From Escherichia coli O127:H6 str. E2348/69 (GTDB lineage: Bacteria; Pseudomonadota; Gammaproteobacteria; Enterobacterales; Enterobacteriaceae), in the NCBI RefSeq assembly GCF_000026545.1, contig NC_011601.1: 64,000 nucleotides of DNA, one strand, 5' to 3'. The translations under genes and the position numbers were made by a program. Positions 1-17,784 of the stretch are shown here, one piece after another. Within the stretch, counting starts at the first letter, position 1; each line of letters opens with the position of its first letter. The notes beneath the pieces were generated by a model. The model had not been told where the DNA came from, searched no databases, and was given only the letters and a program-made list of their open reading frames with translations.

Positions 1-13
1 AGGGAACAATCTC

Positions 14-901
14 ATGAAAACTGAACGAAAAAACGAGCATTACCTGGCGCTACAACAGGCGTTTGACGCGCCATGGCCTGGGCCTGTAGGAGAGTTAGTG
101 ATGCTGGAAAAAGGCAATATTCACCTGCAGATTTATCCGCATGATGGTGCCAGGATAACCTCGTTAAAGGCATTTGGTTCTGAAGTATTACGCCAATGGC
201 AGCCGCAGCGCAGAGCTTTTCAGTATAGCTGTTTCCCAATGGTGCCGTGGGCAGGGCGACTGGGGAATGCGACGCTGAATGCTGGTGGGCAATGTTATTC
301 TTTACCCGCCAATAAACCACCACATGCGTTGCATGGTATGGCTTGTTACTCAACGTGGGAAATCATCGACAAAACAGCAGATTCCCTGACTTTACGTATG
401 CCCCTGGCTTCACCGTGGCCCTGGCAAGGGGAAGTGATTCAGACTTTTTTGCTGGAGAACGATGCGCTGGTTTTGCAACTGGAAGTCCATTCATATGCCG
501 ATACATTCCCGGCCTCCGCAGGCTGGCATCCGTGGTTTGCGAAAAAGCTGACTCCGCAAAATACAGAATCGTTGCAGGTGCTTTTTGATGCGGACTGGCA
601 AGAAGAAGCGGGTAGTGATGAACTGCCAACTGGAAATCGTATCTCTCCTCAAGTTGGTCCCTGGGATGACTGTTTTGGTTTTTATGACGGGGTGAAGGTT
701 AAGTTACTGTGGCCTGGTAAACTCGCGATGACCATGACCTCTTCTGCAAACAGTCTGGTGGTATTTGATAAACAGCCCGATGCCACCTGTATTAACCCAC
801 TGACTCAGGCACCTAACGCAATAAATCTAACGCCGGAATTTGTGACACCAGATAAGCCGCTGGTCATCGAAACTCGTTGGCAATTTACACCTGAATCTTA
901 A
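14..901 (+). CDS. aldose 1-epimerase family protein (YihR-like)
   Basis: 295-aa ORF; motifs resembling the aldose-1-epimerase fold (FPMVPWAGRL, HALHGMACYSTWEI, AGWHPWF); AGGGA SD-like sequence just upstream of ATG at 14. Confidence 0.6.
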   Translation: MKTERKNEHYLALQQAFDAPWPGPVGELVMLEKGNIHLQIYPHDGARITSLKAFGSEVLRQWQPQRRAFQYSCFPMVPWAGRLGNATLNAGGQCYSLPANKPPHALHGMACYSTWEIIDKTADSLTLRMPLASPWPWQGEVIQTFLLENDALVLQLEVHSYADTFPASAGWHPWFAKKLTPQNTESLQVLFDADWQEEAGSDELPTGNRISPQVGPWDDCFGFYDGVKVKLLWPGKLAMTMTSSANSLVVFDKQPDATCINPLTQAPNAINLTPEFVTPDKPLVIETRWQFTPES

Positions 902-1041
902 CCATTCATCTATTGCGAAAAAGCCAGTGAAATTACTCTGCTTTTTCGCAATCAGCATCACAAGATTACCCTTATTGCCACATAGCCAAACCCATCCTTT
1001 CCCGCTACAGTTAATTTCTTGTGGCGCGAAAGGAGGCAAAA

Positions 1042-1641
1042 ATGCTCTATATCTTTGATTTAGGTAATGTGATTGTCGATATCGACTTTAACCGTGTGCT
1101 GGGGGCCTGGAGCGATTTAACGCGTGTTCCACTGGCTACGCTTAAGAAGAGTTTCCACATGGGCGAGGCGTTTCATCAGCATGAGCGTGGGGAAATTAGC
1201 GACGAAGCGTTCGCAGAGGCACTGTGTCATGAGATGGCCCTGCCGCTAAGCTATGAGCAGTTCTCCCACGGTTGGCAGGCGGTATTTGTTGCGCTACGAC
1301 CGGAAGTGATCGCCATCATGCATAAACTGCGTGAGCAGGGGCATCGCGTGGTGGTGCTTTCCAATACTAACCGCCTGCATACTACCTTCTGGCCGGAGGA
1401 ATACCCGGAAATCCGTGATGCTGCTGACCATATCTATCTGTCGCAAGACTTGGGTATGCGCAAACCTGAAGCACGAATTTATCAGCATGTTTTGCAGGCA
1501 GAAGGTTTTTCACCAGACGATACGGTCTTTTTCGACGATAACGCCGATAATATAGAAGGAGCTAATCGGCTAGGCATTACTAGTATTCTGGTGAAAGATA
1601 AAACCACCATCCCGGACTATTTCGCGAAGGTGTTATGCTAA
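1042..1641 (+). CDS. yihX: alpha-D-glucose-1-phosphate phosphatase, HAD family
   Basis: 199 aa from ATG 1042, preceded by AGGAGG at 1031-1036; N-terminus [10 protein letters not shown](I)VDID is the HAD motif I; the track ORF begins at an upstream GTG. Confidence 0.9.
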
Positions 1642-2507
1642 AAACCATTCAGGACAAAGCCAAGCATCGTACCCGTCCACTATGGGCCTGGCTAAAACTA
1701 CTCTGGCAACGCATTGATGAGGACAACATGACAACCCTGGCAGGTAACCTTGCCTATGTGTCGTTGCTCTCATTAGTGCCGCTGGTTGCCGTTGTTTTTG
1801 CGCTTTTCGCCGCTTTTCCCATGTTTTCCGACGTCAGCATTCAGTTGCGTCACTTTATTTTTGCCAACTTTCTGCCTGCTACTGGCGATGTTATCCAGCG
1901 ATATATCGAACAGTTTGTCGCCAATTCCAACAAAATGACCGCCGTCGGGGCGTGCGGGCTGATCGTCACGGCGTTATTGTTGATGTACTCCATCGATAGC
2001 GCGTTGAATACCATCTGGCGCAGTAAACGAGCGCGACCCAAAATTTACTCGTTTGCCGTGTACTGGATGATTTTAACGCTGGGGCCGCTGTTGGCAGGGG
2101 CCAGTCTGGCGATCAGCTCCTATCTGCTCTCTCTGCGCTGGGCGAGCGATCTCAATACTGTCATCGATAATGTGTTGCGTATTTTTCCGCTGCTGTTGTC
2201 GTGGATCTCTTTCTGGCTGCTGTACAGCATCGTTCCTACCATCCGTGTACCTAACCGCGACGCGATTGTCGGCGCGTTTGTCGCCGCGCTCCTGTTCGAA
2301 GCAGGAAAGAAAGGTTTCGCGCTTTATATCACCATGTTCCCATCATATCAGCTCATTTACGGTGTGCTGGCGGTGATCCCCATTCTCTTTGTTTGGGTCT
2401 ACTGGACATGGTGTATCGTCTTGCTTGGCGCGGAAATTACTGTCACTCTCGGGGAATACCGCAAATTAAAACAAGCTGCTGAACAAGAAGAAGACGACGA
2501 ACCATGA
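1635..2507 (+). CDS. yihY: YihY/virulence factor BrkB family inner membrane protein
   Basis: 290 aa, multiple hydrophobic segments; overlaps the yihX stop; matches K-12 gene order and size. Confidence 0.9.
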
Positions 2508-3990: not shown

Positions 3991-4941
3991 TTACCTTCCC
4001 GCTCTCCAGGCAACATCCCGTAGCGCCGATCGCGCAGCCTCACTGATACCACCTAACTGAAAAAATCCGTGGATAACGCCAAGGTAGCGTTGGCAGGTGC
4101 ATTGCACTCCTTGCCCTGTCATGCGGTGATACAACGCTTCACCTTCATCGCAAAGTGGGTCGTATTCAGCGGTAATGATATGTACAGGTGGCAATCCATT
4201 GAAATCATTGCGCCAAATAGGGCTGGCTTCAGGATGCCTGCGTTCAATGCCTGGCAGGTACATCTCAAAGCCGCTCAGTAAAGTGTCGCGTGTGATGATG
4301 TAATCGTGACCATTGCGTATGTAGCTTTCGAAATGCGCAGTCGCATCAAGCATAGGATAAATTAAGATGAGTTGTGCTGGTTGCCACTCGCCAGCACGCT
4401 TCAATCGCAAAGCAGTTACCTGCGCCAGATGCCCTCCCGCACTGTCACCGGCAAGAGTTATTCGTTGTTTATCAACGCCGAGTCGTTCGGCGTGTTGCCG
4501 GACTAATTCTGCACCTCGTTGTGCATCATCATGGGCGGCGGGGAAAGTATGTTCCGGTGCCAGCCGATACTGGACGGCAATAATCCGACATTGCCCGTAA
4601 TAGGCTAACTGGCGCAGCTGGTTGTCGTGAGTTGCGAACCCGCCGCTAACAAAACAGCCACCGTAGTAATAAATTATCGTCGGGAGTAATGTCGGGGCAT
4701 TCAGCGGTGACACTATTCGTAAGGTCATCCCTTCAAGTTCGATAGTCTGAATATCTACCCGCGTTTCTGTCTCACCCGCAAGGACAGCGCTGGCGATATA
4801 GCCCTCTCTGCGCTGCGTAATACTTTGTTGGCGCGATGAGGGGCGACCCGCAGCGATAAACTCTTCGACTAACTCTGCAATTCCTTTTTCCAGTGCCATA
4901 GTAGAACTCATTTTGCTGTATGAATGTACAGTTTTATACAC
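3991..4941 (-). CDS. alpha/beta-hydrolase fold esterase/lipase (Aes/HSL-family-like)
   Basis: GDSAGG nucleophile-elbow motif and YGGCF oxyanion-hole-like motif; true start uncertain (candidates at M1, M11, M15 of the track ORF); not expected at this position from K-12 order. Confidence 0.7.
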   Translation of the reverse strand: MYKTVHSYSKMSSTMALEKGIAELVEEFIAAGRPSSRQQSITQRREGYIASAVLAGETETRVDIQTIELEGMTLRIVSPLNAPTLLPTIIYYYGGCFVSGGFATHDNQLRQLAYYGQCRIIAVQYRLAPEHTFPAAHDDAQRGAELVRQHAERLGVDKQRITLAGDSAGGHLAQVTALRLKRAGEWQPAQLILIYPMLDATAHFESYIRNGHDYIITRDTLLSGFEMYLPGIERRHPEASPIWRNDFNGLPPVHIITAEYDPLCDEGEALYHRMTGQGVQCTCQRYLGVIHGFFQLGGISEAARSALRDVAWRAGR

Positions 4942-5073
4942 CCGTTTTTACTGGATGGATACAGGGAAATTCACGGGCGTGAAAAATCTGGAAAGCGCCT
5001 CGCAAATGTAAAGACAAACCCGGCAGAGACGTGGTTTTGCTGGAGCACTATCAGTAAGCTAGTGGTTTCAAGG

Positions 5074-5090
5074 GTACGTCAATGACGTAC
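5074..5090. promoter_or_regulatory. perfect palindrome GTACGTCA-A-TGACGTAC upstream of the toxin-antitoxin pair; putative antitoxin operator
   Basis: 8-bp inverted arms read directly, about 40 bp upstream of the higB-like ATG; a TATAAT hexamer also sits at 5121-5126. Confidence 0.4.
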
Positions 5091-5127
5091 AAAAAGGATT
5101 GTTACTCTAAGCCAATGGCGTATAATT

Positions 5128-5439
5128 ATGCTCTTCATCGAAACGGAAATTTTTACTGAAGATGTTCAAAAACTGCTGACCGACGATGAATTCAGTCGTT
5201 TTCAGTTTTTCCTGGCCTTGAATCCTGACTATGGTGAGGTAATACCTGAAACTGGTGGGTTAAGAAAGGTTCGATGGGTGTCAGGAGGAAAGGGGAAACG
5301 TGCTGGTGTCAGGGTTATTTACTTTCATCAGGTTAAACATTATGAGATCAGATTACTGCTTATTTATCGTAAGGGTATTAAAGATGATCTGTCTCCCCAG
5401 GAAAAAGCAATGCTCCGGTTGTTAAATACGAGGTGGTAA
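5128..5439 (+). CDS. RelE/HigB-superfamily toxin (type II TA)
   Basis: 103 aa, basic, toxin-first order, stop abuts the antitoxin ATG; sequence style typical of HigB-like addiction-module killers. Confidence 0.7.
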   Translation: MLFIETEIFTEDVQKLLTDDEFSRFQFFLALNPDYGEVIPETGGLRKVRWVSGGKGKRAGVRVIYFHQVKHYEIRLLLIYRKGIKDDLSPQEKAMLRLLNTRW

Positions 5440-5730
5440 ATGGATAAGGCACTTTTTGAGCGGTTGACTCACAGCATGGCCCAGATGAATGAAATTATTG
5501 AAGGAACGCGACAGCCTTCGCGGACTTTTGAAGTTGATGCTATGAAAATCAAAGAAATACGCCGCGCTTCAGGGTTGTCACAATCTAAATTTGCCGATCT
5601 TATTTCTGTAAGCGTAGACACGTTGCGTAACTGGGAGCAGGGGCGACGTTCACCGACCGGGCCTGCAAAGGCTTTGCTGCGAGCGATTGCCAATGATCCG
5701 CAACATGTGCTGCAAGCACTTAACCGTTAG
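5440..5730 (+). CDS. XRE-family HTH antitoxin (HigA-like)
   Basis: 96 aa; HTH signature SGLSQSKFADLISVSVDTLRNWEQGRR; ATG immediately after the toxin TAA with GAGGTGG SD inside the toxin 3' end. Confidence 0.7.
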   Translation: MDKALFERLTHSMAQMNEIIEGTRQPSRTFEVDAMKIKEIRRASGLSQSKFADLISVSVDTLRNWEQGRRSPTGPAKALLRAIANDPQHVLQALNR

Positions 5731-13640: not shown

Positions 13641-15476
13641 ATGAGTACATTACAGTTACCTGGCAGTTCATATTCTACTGAAGTTAATTTAAACGGCTTA
13701 ATTGAGGTGCTCAGTAAGCACCTTTACTCTACCCCCGTGGTCGCCGTGCGCGAGCTGGTGCAGAACGGACACGATGCGATCGTGCGCCGCAGGATTGAGC
13801 AGCCCGATGCGCCAAAGGATAACCAAATTCGTGTGGTGGCAGACGTGGCGAAGTCCACCATCACCATTACCGATACCGGTGCGGGTTTGACAGAAAGCGA
13901 AATTCACGGCTTCCTGGCAACAGTGGGCGTGGGTTATACCCGAATGTTGCGCCAGCAGGATGACAACACCGGTTTAATTGGTATGTTCGGCCTTGGTTTC
14001 TTGTCAGCATTTGTACTTGCAAAAGAGGTCACGGTGTTGACCACATCCTGGCAAACGCCGGATCAGAGCTGGAAATACCACTCTACCGACGGGCAAAAAT
14101 ATACCGTTACGCCGCATCAGTCCTCGGAAACGGGAACGCAGGTGATTCTGACGCTCAAAGAAGAGTACAGCCATCTGGCGAGTAACAATTTGCTGAACCG
14201 CGTTCTTTCCCGCTACTGTGTATTGCTGCACGAACCGGTCTATGTCGGCGATGCCAGCGAGCCGGTAAATAAACTTCAACCACCGTGGCGTGAAGTTGCC
14301 CCCGAAGGCGTAACCATACACCGCGCGCTGGTACAGCGTAAAAATCTCGCCTTTGCCGCCCAGTTTGAATCCTCCTTCGAACCGATTTGCACCATTCCGG
14401 TGGTGCCAGCGGGAATGAGCGACGCGGTTGGGATTTTATGGATTCAGGATGGCGCGACCTACGGCACCAGCGATAACCGCAACCTGTCGTTGTTTTTGCG
14501 CGGCATGTTACTGGATGATGAAGCGCGTGAGTTGTTACCGCCCTGGGCCGGATTTATTGGCGGCGTGATTGAGTCATCGAAACTGACGCCGACGGCGAGC
14601 AGGGAAGATCTCCAGCGGGATGCAACCTGGGTTGCGGTACAGGAGGCGTTAAAAGAGGCGCTGATTTCTGGTTTGTCCGATCTCGCACAAAATCAGCCAG
14701 AAATCTGGCGGCGGGTATTAATGCGCCACAACGAAGCGTTGCTGGGTGCGGCCTTGTGTGATGACCGTCTGTTTGATTTGCTCAAAGATCGCTTGCAGGT
14801 GCCAACGTCAAAAGGGGCGCTGCTGGCGAAGGATTTACGCGTTAATAACAGCATTCATATTCTGTTAAGCCGCGACGGCGGTTTTGAAGAGATGTTGTTC
14901 CATATTCTGCAACGGCCTGTAGCCCGTGGCGATCGCTATGCGGTGGTGCCATTTTTACGCCGTTGGGCGCTGTTATATCACTGCCGGATTGTCGAAGTCG
15001 GTACGCAAACGGGTAATGAGCAGTTGTTCAGCCTGGCAGAATTACCCAAAGAGCAGGTGGCTTATCTGGAAGAGCATCTCTGCGACGGCGAGCAATTAAT
15101 TATCTCACGCTTCGAACCCGCCGTTTTACCGTTAGTGGTTACACCAGACCGCGAAGCAGAATTAAAACAAATTCTCGAACAGGATGACGCAGATAAACGC
15201 ATCAGTACCGCAGCGTTAATGCTGGCGCGGCAATTTACCTCGCAAATCCAAAAATCTAAAACTTCAAGTCTGTATATCAACCTTAATAACCCCTGTGTCA
15301 TGCAACTGGTGACGGCCTTACAACACCATCAACAGCCAGCGGCAGCATTACGGTTATTAAAATCGCTGAAAGTGATTTTGTGCTCCAGCGGTAATAAAGA
15401 ACAGCAGTGGGATTTACACCAGGCACTGGAAGATTTTACTCAGGTTATTCCTGTCTTAATTAATCAAGGAAAATAA
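13641..15476 (+). CDS. divergent Hsp90/HtpG-family paralog (GHKL ATPase with Hsp90 middle domain)
   Basis: 611 aa; N-terminus aligns by eye to HtpG: YSTEV..LYS..VRELVQNGHDA (HtpG FQSEV..LYS..LRELISNASDA), ITDTGAGLTESE (ISDNGVGMTRDE), GLIGMFGLGFLSAF (QLIGQFGVGFYSAF); middle domain LFLRGMLLDDEARELLP...IESSKLTPTASREDLQ (LYVQRVFIMDDAEQFMP...IDSSDLPLNVSREILQ). Confidence 0.8.
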   Translation: MSTLQLPGSSYSTEVNLNGLIEVLSKHLYSTPVVAVRELVQNGHDAIVRRRIEQPDAPKDNQIRVVADVAKSTITITDTGAGLTESEIHGFLATVGVGYTRMLRQQDDNTGLIGMFGLGFLSAFVLAKEVTVLTTSWQTPDQSWKYHSTDGQKYTVTPHQSSETGTQVILTLKEEYSHLASNNLLNRVLSRYCVLLHEPVYVGDASEPVNKLQPPWREVAPEGVTIHRALVQRKNLAFAAQFESSFEPICTIPVVPAGMSDAVGILWIQDGATYGTSDNRNLSLFLRGMLLDDEARELLPPWAGFIGGVIESSKLTPTASREDLQRDATWVAVQEALKEALISGLSDLAQNQPEIWRRVLMRHNEALLGAALCDDRLFDLLKDRLQVPTSKGALLAKDLRVNNSIHILLSRDGGFEEMLFHILQRPVARGDRYAVVPFLRRWALLYHCRIVEVGTQTGNEQLFSLAELPKEQVAYLEEHLCDGEQLIISRFEPAVLPLVVTPDREAELKQILEQDDADKRISTAALMLARQFTSQIQKSKTSSLYINLNNPCVMQLVTALQHHQQPAAALRLLKSLKVILCSSGNKEQQWDLHQALEDFTQVIPVLINQGK

Positions 15477-15477
15477 A

Positions 15478-17784
15478 ATGGATACATGGGAGTGGTACAA
15501 CAAATATAGTCAAGAGTTGCGTGATGCCGGGCAAGAATATATTCCGCAGCTTATTGATGATTTTTCAGAAAGTGTTTTGCACCTACAAATAGAAAAATGT
15601 GATTCGCTATTGCCGGAAATGAAAGCACTGAATCAAGTCGCCAAAAATCCGTGGCTGGAAATATTTATTGGTCACTGGGAAATGCGTCATCGCCTGACTA
15701 ACTATGAAGAAGGTGAAAAGGTGCTGCCAGACGTGGTAGCGCTGTTTGAAAAAGCGCATCGGGAAGAGGCGAAAGATTGCCCGCAATCTATCTGCGTTAC
15801 CCAGGATTTATCAGCCTGCTACGAAAATATTGACGCACCAGGCTGGGCGAATGAACGCATGGCGGTGTGTGAAGAAACCATCGCGCGCATTGATCCGACC
15901 TGGAGCTGTTTTCAGTGTTTGTCCACTGAATATGCCAGCGCACTGATAGATTCCAAAAGAACAGAGGAGGCACTGGCTTATCTGGATCGGCAAATCGACG
16001 CAGTTAAAGCAGCCGGGAAAGATGATATTGATCCATTACTTTATACTCGCGCCGATATTCTGATTGAACTTCAGCGTTATGATGAAGCACGCAAATTGAT
16101 TGATGAGCTGACAGAAGCCAATGATTACTGGGGCCGCGACCGCATTAGTAATCACCTAAAAAAACTGTACATCATGGCGTTATGCGGGCAGGACGAAGAA
16201 GTCTGGGAGGAATTACCGCGTTGGTCCGATCTGACTCCGCATTCATGGGGGTCATGGCTGAAAATCATTACTGTGTTACTTCCCCGTCATCCACAAAGAA
16301 ACAACTGGCAACTGGCGCGCATCATCCAGAAAATGCTGGAGCAACGTTCACAGGCCGGGGCGCATCGAAAAGTGGTTAATCTGGCAAAACTACAAATCAC
16401 CCTGGCGCTGGAGCGTGAATCCGTCTGGGTTGCCAAAATAGCGATGAAACTGGCCCAGCGACACATGCCAAAATTACGCGCGTTACTGGGCGTCGATCGC
16501 GAGTTTCTCGAACTTAGCGAAAAAATCGCCACCAAAGAAGCAGAGTTGCTTGCTCGTCCGGTTGTAGAAGTACCTGAAAATAGCGACGAAGAAACGCAGC
16601 CAGATCCAGAAAAAGACGTCGAAATATTCCGCCGCGCTTATCTGAACACACCAGACGATGCAGAGTTACTGGGCAAACTGGTCAATGCGTTAAATGCCTG
16701 TAATGCGATTAATGAGTCAATTGAACTTCTGCAACGCTATGTTGAAAGCCACCTCCATGAAGATAATGGTCTTTGCTTCGATCTGTTGGATTTATTGCTC
16801 CACCGTGACGATCTGCAAACCATTGAGCACCTGGCGAAGCAGTATGAACAGGCGGGGCTGCTACATATGGCCTTGTGGTTCCGGGCGCGAGTGATCAACC
16901 AACAGGAAGACTGGAGTGAACTGGAGTCGATTGGACAACAGTTGCTGCAAAACGAAAAAGGGCGTGAGTGGGTTGGCGTTTATCGCATGTGCTCCTGGGC
17001 AGCACAAAAACAGGAAGCCTGGGATCGACAGCTGGATTATTTACAACAATTGCAGCAACTGATGATTAGCCGTGAAGAAGATATTCGTAATCTCCAGTGG
17101 GATATCATGGCGACCGCCAGCATCCTGCAACAATGGGATTTGGTTCGTGCTATTGCTGCTGAACTGGAAATCGAACTCACGGAAGGTGAAGGTTTTATTG
17201 ACGAAAAATGGGGGCTGCTAAACATTCGCTTCCGGGAAAATTATGAATACCGCTATTACTATGCTCAACGTATTGGGCCGGTAACCGCAAGGATCATTGA
17301 GCCAACTTACCGGACCGATTATCCGCAACATGTTGATGAGGTTGTGGTATTCGATGCAGAAATGTTGAATACCCGACCAGAGGATGAGGAAGAGCAGAAG
17401 AATTTCACTCCGCTTTATGGGTGCCTGAAAACCATTATCCCGACCGAATACGGCGAGTCCTGGTTCTGCGAAGGTGTCATGCCTGGTGAAGAAGAGTTTA
17501 ATACTTTCCGTGAGGCGCTCCGTGAACGAAACTGGTACTACTGGAGCAACAGTAATGACGACTATACGTTAACGGACAGTCATCAAGGAGAAGGCGCTGA
17601 GCCGCTGTCTGCATTCTATTTTGTTATCAGTGCGCCGCGTTCAGTTTCTAAAGGTGATATCGACAAGACCTTGCACGAATTGACCGCTGACTGGAAACAT
17701 CCGTTGTGCTGGTGGCGTCTTGCCAAAGAAGCCGGGGCGAATGAAGAGAAACATGCTGCTATTGCCGAGAGATATGGAATGTAA
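15478..17784 (+). CDS. 768-aa acidic, predicted all-helical repeat protein of unknown function, coupled to the Hsp90 paralog
   Basis: ATG one nucleotide after the upstream TAA; long uninterrupted ORF; TPR-like amphipathic segments; Trp/Tyr-rich C-terminal region; no catalytic motif I can name. Confidence 0.65.
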   Translation: MDTWEWYNKYSQELRDAGQEYIPQLIDDFSESVLHLQIEKCDSLLPEMKALNQVAKNPWLEIFIGHWEMRHRLTNYEEGEKVLPDVVALFEKAHREEAKDCPQSICVTQDLSACYENIDAPGWANERMAVCEETIARIDPTWSCFQCLSTEYASALIDSKRTEEALAYLDRQIDAVKAAGKDDIDPLLYTRADILIELQRYDEARKLIDELTEANDYWGRDRISNHLKKLYIMALCGQDEEVWEELPRWSDLTPHSWGSWLKIITVLLPRHPQRNNWQLARIIQKMLEQRSQAGAHRKVVNLAKLQITLALERESVWVAKIAMKLAQRHMPKLRALLGVDREFLELSEKIATKEAELLARPVVEVPENSDEETQPDPEKDVEIFRRAYLNTPDDAELLGKLVNALNACNAINESIELLQRYVESHLHEDNGLCFDLLDLLLHRDDLQTIEHLAKQYEQAGLLHMALWFRARVINQQEDWSELESIGQQLLQNEKGREWVGVYRMCSWAAQKQEAWDRQLDYLQQLQQLMISREEDIRNLQWDIMATASILQQWDLVRAIAAELEIELTEGEGFIDEKWGLLNIRFRENYEYRYYYAQRIGPVTARIIEPTYRTDYPQHVDEVVVFDAEMLNTRPEDEEEQKNFTPLYGCLKTIIPTEYGESWFCEGVMPGEEEFNTFREALRERNWYYWSNSNDDYTLTDSHQGEGAEPLSAFYFVISAPRSVSKGDIDKTLHELTADWKHPLCWWRLAKEAGANEEKHAAIAERYGM

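Follow-up and report, generated by a model that had tools for sequence, protein, structure and literature searches.

In Escherichia coli, the yih locus occurs in a long and a short form. The long form, as in K-12, is the sulfo-EMP (sulfo-Embden-Meyerhof-Parnas) cassette ompL-yihOPQRSTUVW, which contains a sulfoquinovosidase, the YihS isomerase, YihR, the GPH-type transporters YihO and YihP, and OmpL. Kaznadzey et al. (2025) described the long/short polymorphism and presented the short form as a truncated, inverted "short yih cassette (yihTUVW)" of unclear function, enriched in pathogens, common in B2 strains and present in Nissle 1917 (PMC12608037). Its YihW shows 72% identity to CsqR, binds DNA and responds more weakly to sulfoquinovose (SQ) (PMC12608037). 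Here, a window of 64,000 nucleotides from the chromosome of E. coli O127:H6 str. E2348/69 (NC_011601.1) was analyzed, with emphasis on an open reading frame (ORF) at positions 14-901 that lies directly upstream of yihX. The flanking context was read from the E2348/69 chromosome NZ_CP059840.2, to which the window is 100% identical. On balance, we favor the reading that ORF 14-901 ends an eight-gene catabolic cassette, an alternative allele to ompL-yihOPQRSTUVW, which would serve the variant sulfosugar pathway proposed below. We are confident of the cassette architecture and have lower confidence in the mechanism.

The typA-yihX interval of E2348/69 contains eight genes in 8.7 kb according to the RefSeq annotation. 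The genes of the cassette and its right flank were as follows, with coordinates given for the window.

Cassette, minus strand: DeoR regulator and PfkB kinase (RefSeq annotation)
Cassette, plus strand: 3-hydroxyisobutyrate dehydrogenase (HIBADH)-type reductase (annotated yihU), class I DeoC/LacD aldolase, Zn-dependent alcohol dehydrogenase (Zn-ADH), two major facilitator superfamily (MFS) transporters and ORF 14-901
1-24, plus strand: 3' end of the second MFS transporter gene (…REQSHEN*, stop codon 22-24; annotated at L001 14675-16024)
14-901, plus strand: aldose-1-epimerase-fold (galactose-mutarotase-like) gene, 295 amino acids, ATG start, intact, last gene of the cassette
1042-1641, plus strand: yihX (glucose-1-phosphatase, HAD family), conserved right flank, outside the cassette

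The cassette proteins were compared with the K-12-type proteins by BLASTP. The regulator matched CsqR with 71% identity, the kinase YihV with 67%, the reductase YihU with 72% and the aldolase YihT with 67%. ORF 14-901 showed 27% identity to K-12-type YihR over 164 amino acids. No cassette protein matched YihQ, YihS, YihO, YihP, OmpL or YihLMN in this comparison, and the family scans of the cassette detected no GH31 or AGE-type protein and no YihS-type or other isomerase. Thus, the alternative cassette shares with the K-12 cassette a homologous regulator, kinase, aldolase and reductase with identical sulfonate-pocket residues and a divergent W-V|U-T core, whereas the front-end genes of the long cassette are replaced by the Zn-ADH, the two MFS transporters and ORF 14-901.

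The first-pass annotation of this DNA had pointed out that the upstream neighbor of yihX is a same-strand 295-amino acid ORF of the aldose-1-epimerase family instead of the regulator yihW. This was borne out, since the ORF matches PF01263 and contains no DeoR domains. The K-12 order on which the comparison rested was also correct, with yihV, csqR and yihX following one another in a K-12-type genome. The possibility that the ORF is itself YihW/CsqR was rejected, because HTH_DeoR and DeoRC are absent and PF01263 was the only family found in it. No DeoR domain or gene occurs between ORF 14-901 and yihX either, and positions 902-1041 are intergenic. The CsqR-like gene (71%, HTH_DeoR and DeoRC) lies on the opposite strand, approximately 7 kb further upstream and outside the window. 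Compared with K-12, the W-V|U-T core common to both cassettes is inverted, which places the regulator at the distal end and leaves an unrelated gene next to yihX. Therefore, the suggestion of a "rearranged or reduced" locus held in part: the locus differs from that of K-12 and lacks yihQ, yihR, yihS, yihO, yihP and ompL, but "reduced" is misleading, as the yihW-like regulator is kept and the front-end genes are replaced by four others.

The E2348/69 cassette occupies the same locus as the published short yih cassette, with the same flanks (typA or yihN to its left, yihX to its right), the same inverted W-V|U-T core and a regulator of about 71-72% identity to CsqR. The published form was treated as a four-gene truncation, whereas a conserved eight-gene unit that extends far outside E. 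coli was found here. The Zn-ADH, the two MFS genes and the epimerase-like gene are unmentioned in the main text and supplement of PMC12608037. In the literature searches, neither the Zn-ADH nor the epimerase portion of the cassette was found described, and a 2026 review of SQ catabolism contains no such route. The allele itself has already been published; its full eight-gene extent, deep conservation and intact sulfonate pockets appear to be new here.

The distribution of the cassette was analyzed in complete E. coli genomes. At least 80% of the 8.7-kb cassette was matched in 1325 of 5426 genomes (~24%), at 98.6-100% identity among the records listed, and at least 80% of window positions 1-1700 in 1341 of the same 5426. 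The arrangement is thus a common allele and not a chance event. All eight genes were annotated as intact in each of the five cassette-carrying E. coli genomes that were inspected. The same eight genes, with an orthologue of the ORF as the last one, are also present in Citrobacter amalonaticus at the same typA…yihX locus, in Klebsiella oxytoca at another locus, and in Rhodopseudomonas palustris BisB18, Rhodovastum, gut Sutterella, Succinatimonas and Vibrio rhodolitus; only the Streptomyces homologues sit in an unrelated context. A recent horizontal island was considered and rejected, as no compositional signal was found (GC content of 49.5% in the cassette, 52-53% in the flanks and 50.7% in the long cassette) and Citrobacter carries the set at the same locus.

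Sequence identity between the E. coli proteins and those of Citrobacter and R. palustris, respectively, was 94% and 70% for the Zn-ADH, 91% and 69% for the first MFS transporter, 90% and 73% for the aldolase, 85% and 65% for the second MFS transporter, 72% and 51% for ORF 14-901, 83% and 28% for the kinase, 84% and 26% for the reductase, and 92% and 26% for the regulator. The Zn-ADH is the most conserved cassette protein, with 66-70% identity to Sutterella and R. palustris. The kinase, reductase and regulator of R. palustris are different members of the same families. Since these three are non-orthologous, the deeply conserved module consists of the aldolase, Zn-ADH, two MFS transporters and epimerase, and this module is conserved across the alpha-, beta- and gammaproteobacteria. 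Between E. coli and Citrobacter, the ratio of non-synonymous to synonymous substitution rates (dN/dS) was 0.013-0.078 for the six estimable cassette genes, with 0.078 for ORF 14-901 and 0.013-0.065 for the other five. The synonymous rate was saturated for the DeoR and second MFS genes, for which the proportion of non-synonymous differences was 0.05 and 0.09. The alternative cassette is a complete and widely conserved unit, not a truncation or stump.

The active sites of the kinase, aldolase and reductase were compared with the characterized sulfo-EMP enzymes. The published sulfonate-pocket and catalytic residues are K27, N109, R138 and D244 of the sulfofructose (SF) kinase, K193, S226, S227 and R253 of the sulfofructose-1-phosphate (SFP) aldolase, and R123, N174 and S178 of the sulfolactaldehyde reductase (PMC8006165). 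The copies of E. coli, Citrobacter and Klebsiella keep all of these residues of YihV, YihT and YihU, and those of Sutterella keep them for the most part; the kinase sulfonate triad (K27-N109-R138) reads K/S/R in Sutterella. In R. palustris, the kinase sulfonate residues were not found at the aligned positions. The Schiff-base Lys193 of the aldolase, together with Ser226, Ser227 and Arg253, is conserved in all five class I clusters examined. The reductase scored 581.6 bits against a cut-off of 348 for the NCBIfam sulfolactaldehyde-3-reductase equivalog NF012005.

In Vibrio rhodolitus, a class II aldolase (L016 5259-6140) replaces the class I enzyme, a non-orthologous displacement in an otherwise identical gene set. 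Its best matches in the Protein Data Bank (PDB) were the SFP aldolases HpSqiA and YaSqiA (8Q58 and 8Q57; E=1.7e-108, 61% identity to HpSqiA), far above AgaY or fructose-bisphosphate aldolases. Given the intact pockets, the SqiA-like Vibrio aldolase and the anion-type transporters described below, the lower pathway most likely runs from SF to SFP, then to dihydroxyacetone phosphate (DHAP) and sulfolactaldehyde, and finally to 2,3-dihydroxypropane-1-sulfonate (DHPS).

ORF 14-901 corresponds to WP_001386512.1, annotated in RefSeq as aldose 1-epimerase. The protein matched Pfam PF01263 (Aldose_epim) with E=1.5e-21 and 77.6 bits against a gathering score of 27, with an alignment restricted to residues 29-213. 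A profile of 109 homologues matched YphB, Bacillus subtilis GalM, and the human and Lactococcus lactis mutarotases. The AlphaFold2 model built from these 109 homologues had a mean predicted local distance difference test (pLDDT) score of 93.7 and a predicted template modeling (TM) score of 0.91. In a Foldseek search of the PDB, the top match was E. coli YphB (3NRE; TM 0.77, E=2.8e-21), followed by 3OS7, 3MWX, 1SNZ and 1L7K, all mutarotase-like. Yeast hexose-6-phosphate mutarotase (2CIQ) ranked 22nd, with TM 0.64 and 17% identity, well behind the YphB-like proteins. By fold and sequence, the protein is a member of the PF01263 superfamily, where it falls in a different subfamily from YihR, YphB and GalM; catalysis of the canonical mutarotase kind is not assured for it.

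His107 (HALHG), His172 (GWHPWF) and Asp218 are invariant in the 109 homologues, and the two histidines align with the corresponding residues of YihR and YphB. They correspond to the catalytic His pair of L. lactis GalM (His96 and His170), whose H96N and H170N mutant structures were among the Foldseek matches. The canonical catalytic Glu (Glu304 of L. lactis GalM, with the E304Q mutant structure also among the matches) is Asn261 in the E. coli protein. The motif reads C-I-N261-P in ORF 14-901, A-V-E-P in YihR, C-L-E-P in YphB and C-I-E-P in 3OS7. Of the 109 homologues, 69 carry Asn at this position, 39 carry Glu and one carries Ala. Among the inspected clusters, the Asn form was found in the enterobacterial, Sutterella, Succinatimonas and Vibrio clusters and the Glu form in the alphaproteobacterial ones. 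As 69 of the 109 homologues have Asn, Asn261 is a conserved lineage trait and not a fresh lesion. Judged from sequence, the product may function as a mutarotase that uses another base, as an aid to ring opening or as a binding protein. The E2348/69 allele carries Ser72 (codon 72, window positions 227-229) and Met30. Gly72 is found in the remaining E. coli alleles and in at least 90% of the 109 homologues, and the Ser72 allele may be mildly impaired.

Two more specific identities were considered for the ORF. A relocated yihR was rejected, as the protein scored 34.4 bits against the cut-off of 251 of the NCBIfam YihR equivalog NF011719, with the 27% identity over 164 amino acids given above. The BLAST comparison recommended in the first-pass annotation thus gave 27% identity to YihR and to YphB alike, and the gene is neither yihW nor a relocated yihR. 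YihR lies beside yihQ and yihS, and neither of these is present in the E2348/69 interval. SF anomerises spontaneously with a half-life of 26 s, and the mutarotation of SQ has a half-life of 299 min and needs a mutarotase (PMC8006165). A role as SF mutarotase is unlikely in view of this spontaneous anomerisation.

The best PDB matches of the Zn-ADH were RspB, a ketose reductase, a threonine dehydrogenase and a sorbitol dehydrogenase. The enzyme belongs to the polyol/ketose-reductase part of the MDR family, and RspB was both its top PDB match and its top NCBIfam relative, with modest similarity (132 bits). In NCBIfam, the two transporters fall into organic-anion types, one being ShiA/MHS-like and the other aromatic-acid/H+ symporter-like. 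The second MFS transporter scored 404 bits with the metabolite/H+ symporter family TIGR00883 and 408 bits with the shikimate transporter NF007414, which is below the latter's cut-off of 538 bits.

In the proposed pathway, one MFS transporter would import an anionic, most likely sulfonated, sugar, and the mutarotase-like protein would handle ring opening or anomer supply. The Zn-ADH, in place of the YihS isomerase, would make the 2-ketose SF by a redox step; by analogy with dehydrogenase-first pathways, its simplest substrate would be a 6-deoxy-6-sulfo-hexitol. The YihV-like kinase would then convert SF to SFP, and the YihT-like aldolase would cleave SFP to DHAP and sulfolactaldehyde. The YihU-like reductase would reduce sulfolactaldehyde to DHPS, which the other MFS transporter would export. 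Published data suggest that the physiological substrate is not simply SQ. A function of the Zn-ADH as the sugar-1-dehydrogenase of a sulfo-Entner-Doudoroff-type route was rejected, as a C1 carboxylate cannot yield DHAP from C1-C3. The same route is also ruled out by the absence of a lactonase, a dehydratase and a 2-keto-3-deoxy-6-phosphogluconate (KDPG)-type aldolase from the cluster.

Tentatively, the cassette can be read as an isomerase-independent entry into sulfo-EMP, in which a sulfosugar other than free SQ would be turned into SF by the Zn-ADH together with a mutarotase-like protein that is divergent and often Glu-less. The candidate substrates would be a 6-deoxy-6-sulfo-hexitol or an oxidized SQ derivative. 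The extreme version, in which the Zn-ADH performs a net aldose-to-ketose isomerisation through a bound cofactor, is much less likely.

Several observations weigh against the proposed pathway. An alditol needs no mutarotase and SF anomerises in seconds, so a mutarotase-like gene that is always present, directly behind a transporter gene, points to an aldopyranose that mutarotates slowly. Conversion of a pyranose aldose to a ketose is beyond a single polyol dehydrogenase, and no natural sulfo-alditol was on record in the searched literature. In Nissle 1917, yihT, yihU, yihV and yihW of the short cassette were not induced on SQ (PMC12608037). The E. coli ORF has Asn261 at the catalytic position. 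It is also the least conserved and fastest-evolving gene of the cassette (72% to Citrobacter), and two E. coli alleles of it differ by 2 synonymous and 6 non-synonymous changes. Moreover, the alphaproteobacterial clusters have a non-orthologous kinase and reductase (26-28% identity), in which the aligned positions do not show the sulfonate residues.

As an alternative, the cassette would still be an SQ pathway, with ORF 14-901 standing in for YihR and SQ entering through the MFS transporters before an unrecognized route to SF; for example, a housekeeping aldose reductase might reduce SQ, and the Zn-ADH would then oxidize the product. The very slow mutarotation of SQ would make a mutarotase useful, and the lower-pathway residues for SF, SFP and sulfolactaldehyde are intact. 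Furthermore, short-cassette Nissle 1917 grows on SQ about like K-12, and SQ dissociates the Nissle YihW from DNA in electrophoretic mobility shift assays, although weakly (PMC12608037). However, besides the uninduced yihT/U/V/W, the other cassette genes are absent among the listed differentially expressed genes in Nissle on SQ (PMC12608037). The cassette also contains no YihS-type or other isomerase, and its epimerase-like protein, with 27% identity to YihR, falls far below the YihR equivalog cut-off and lacks the catalytic Glu. We therefore regard an SQ pathway as unlikely. A carboxylated sugar acid was considered as another substrate class: an RspB-like dehydrogenase would make a keto-uronate from an aldonate, phosphorylation and cleavage would give DHAP and tartronate semialdehyde, and the HIBADH enzyme would reduce the latter to glycerate. 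The organic-anion types of both transporters, the tartronate semialdehyde reductases among HIBADH enzymes and the alphaproteobacterial enzymes without sulfonate residues are consistent with this. RspB, the nearest relative of the Zn-ADH, is reportedly linked to L-gulonate catabolism. A sugar acid is nevertheless improbable, as the enterobacterial kinase keeps the K-R-N sulfonate triad, the reductase exceeds the sulfolactaldehyde-reductase equivalog cut-off, the Vibrio aldolase is 61% identical to a characterized SFP aldolase, and bona fide sulfo-EMP enzymes share 64-72% identity with the products of the core genes.

Decay was weighed in the same way. The cassette would then be the remnant of a truncated and inverted SQ cassette, with passenger neighbors and a functionless or degenerating mutarotase gene, in agreement with its publication as a truncated cassette not induced by SQ (PMC12608037). 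The change of the catalytic Glu to Asn, the 2 synonymous versus 6 non-synonymous changes between the two E. coli alleles, and Ser72 at a nearly invariant Gly position point in the same direction. Against this, the eight genes are intact in all five inspected E. coli carriers and the gene set is found again in three classes of proteobacteria. Over the long term, dN/dS amounts to 0.08 for the ORF and 0.013-0.065 for the other five estimable genes, and Asn at the Glu position in 69 of 109 homologues is a lineage trait. A decaying remnant is thus largely refuted by conservation and is very improbable, and the variant sulfosugar pathway remains the preferred reading.

The cassette and its epimerase-like protein were compared with other known systems. 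The SQ mutarotases YihR and HsSQM share with the ORF the Pfam family, the fold, the His pair and a location in a sulfosugar cluster, but the ORF has 27% identity to YihR over 164 amino acids, scores 34 bits against the YihR equivalog cut-off of 251, and carries Asn in place of the catalytic Glu. E. coli YphB (3NRE), an uncharacterized mutarotase-like protein, is the closest solved structure (TM 0.77) and the best sequence match (27% over 263 amino acids). In K-12, yphB directly follows the Zn-ADH gene yphC at the end of an ATP-binding cassette (ABC) sugar-transporter operon (L012 18817-20795). Unlike the ORF, YphB keeps the Glu (CLEPMS), and the two are not orthologous; transport in the yph operon relies on an ABC transporter, and the operon contains neither kinase nor aldolase. 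YphC was also rejected as an orthologue of the cassette Zn-ADH (22.5% identity), so that the yphC-yphB pairing is an analogy only. By this analogy, the recurring pairing of a mutarotase-like gene with a Zn-ADH gene hints at a functional connection.

The same logic is reported for the E. coli ydj cluster, which comprises a Zn-ADH, PfkB kinase, aldolase and reductase, and for an RspB-type L-gulonate 5-dehydrogenase. In these pathways, a Zn-ADH is said to oxidize a polyol with a terminal acid to a 2-ketose; after phosphorylation, cleavage yields DHAP and an acid aldehyde that is then reduced. In contrast to the cassette, they reportedly act on carboxylate substrates and include no mutarotase-like gene. 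Published SqiA clusters are said to be SQ clusters with a sulfoquinovosidase and an isomerase, from which the Vibrio rhodolitus cluster differs by its front end of Zn-ADH, two MFS transporters and epimerase-like gene. The SqiA-like aldolase, 61% identical to HpSqiA, is what the Vibrio cluster has in common with the class II sulfo-EMP clusters (PMC10665668).

About one quarter of sequenced E. coli, including the enteropathogenic strain E2348/69, carry this cassette instead of the SQ genes. Nissle 1917 and many pathogenic, largely B2, strains are carriers as well (PMC12608037). With a complete conserved unit, intact sulfonate-binding enzymes and a dehydrogenase for the isomerase, the question changes from why a stump is retained to which sulfonated compound is eaten. 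This bears on gut sulfur cycling and hydrogen sulfide production, and on studies of clinical E. coli that relate genotype to phenotype and in which "SQ metabolism islands" are scored (PMC11879602, for example). The labels yihU, yihT and yihV in carrier strains should not be counted as evidence of SQ catabolism. If the isomerase-independent entry is true, its occurrence in gut E. coli, Sutterella, Succinatimonas, soil alphaproteobacteria and Vibrio would imply a widespread, unrecognized sulfonated nutrient.

The junctions of the cassette were located from alignments of the alleles. Between the ORF and yihX, the following elements were distinguished.

902-974: cassette-specific intergenic DNA, with the right junction of the polymorphism at approximately 975
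910-955, plus strand: stable hairpin just 3' of the ORF stop codon, 13-bp stem UUGCGAAAAAGC…GCUUUUUCGCAA, no T-tract
975-1041, plus strand: yihX upstream region, common to all E. coli alleles and partly to Citrobacter in the alignment

At the right junction, homology between the alleles starts at window position 975, leaving 67 bp to the start codon of yihX. Long-cassette genomes gave Megablast matches from 975-978 onward, and the alignment of the alternative and long alleles diverges upstream of TTGCCACATAGCC. Positions 975-1041 presumably hold the expression signals of yihX itself; a consensus promoter and terminator scan of 800-1150 called nothing and no sigma-70-like site. The hairpin at 910-955 had an RNA folding energy of -18.7 kcal/mol (z = -4.9 versus shuffled sequences), was missed by the simple terminator scan and is identical in a second alternative-cassette strain. 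It may be an operon 3' end or a stabilizer element. Upstream of the ORF, the second MFS gene and ORF 14-901 overlap by 11 nt. In Citrobacter, R. palustris and Rhodovastum, too, the transporter gene adjoins or overlaps the epimerase gene.

At the left junction, the alleles part right after the typA terminator, or after yihN where yihLMN is present. Among carriers of the alternative cassette, yihLMN is present in ET791 and absent from E2348/69 (L011 1-1732 versus L001 8236-8343), and an ST131 strain with the long cassette also lacks yihLMN. Since the presence of yihLMN is independent of the cassette type, the interval holds at least two separate polymorphisms. ST131 strain 5392 (B2; L010 4358-16967) has a long cassette with a frameshifted csqR, a TauE/SafE sulfite-exporter pseudogene between yihQ and yihR, and no yihLMN. 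In Citrobacter amalonaticus (L008 11321-13942), the epimerase-like gene and yihX are separated by an inserted autotransporter gene with Pertactin and Autotransporter domains, which makes this junction an insertion point in another genus as well.

The right flank is conserved. The window YihX is 98% identical to K-12-type YihX and scored 406 bits against the cut-off of 295 for the NCBIfam glucose-1-phosphatase equivalog NF006991, and yihX is followed on its 3' side by yihY, dtd and fabY. Between fabY and yiiE (window 3991-5730), E2348/69 carries a minus-strand alpha/beta hydrolase gene together with a small toxin-antitoxin-like pair of genes, for a hypothetical protein and for NadS. In the K-12-type locus, this place is taken by a pseudogene fragment alone; ST131 and Citrobacter also carry the hydrolase. 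Between fdhD and frvR (window 13641-17784), genes annotated as ATP-binding protein and tetratricopeptide repeat protein occupy the position where the K-12-type strain has yiiG, and this two-gene insert is strain-variable.

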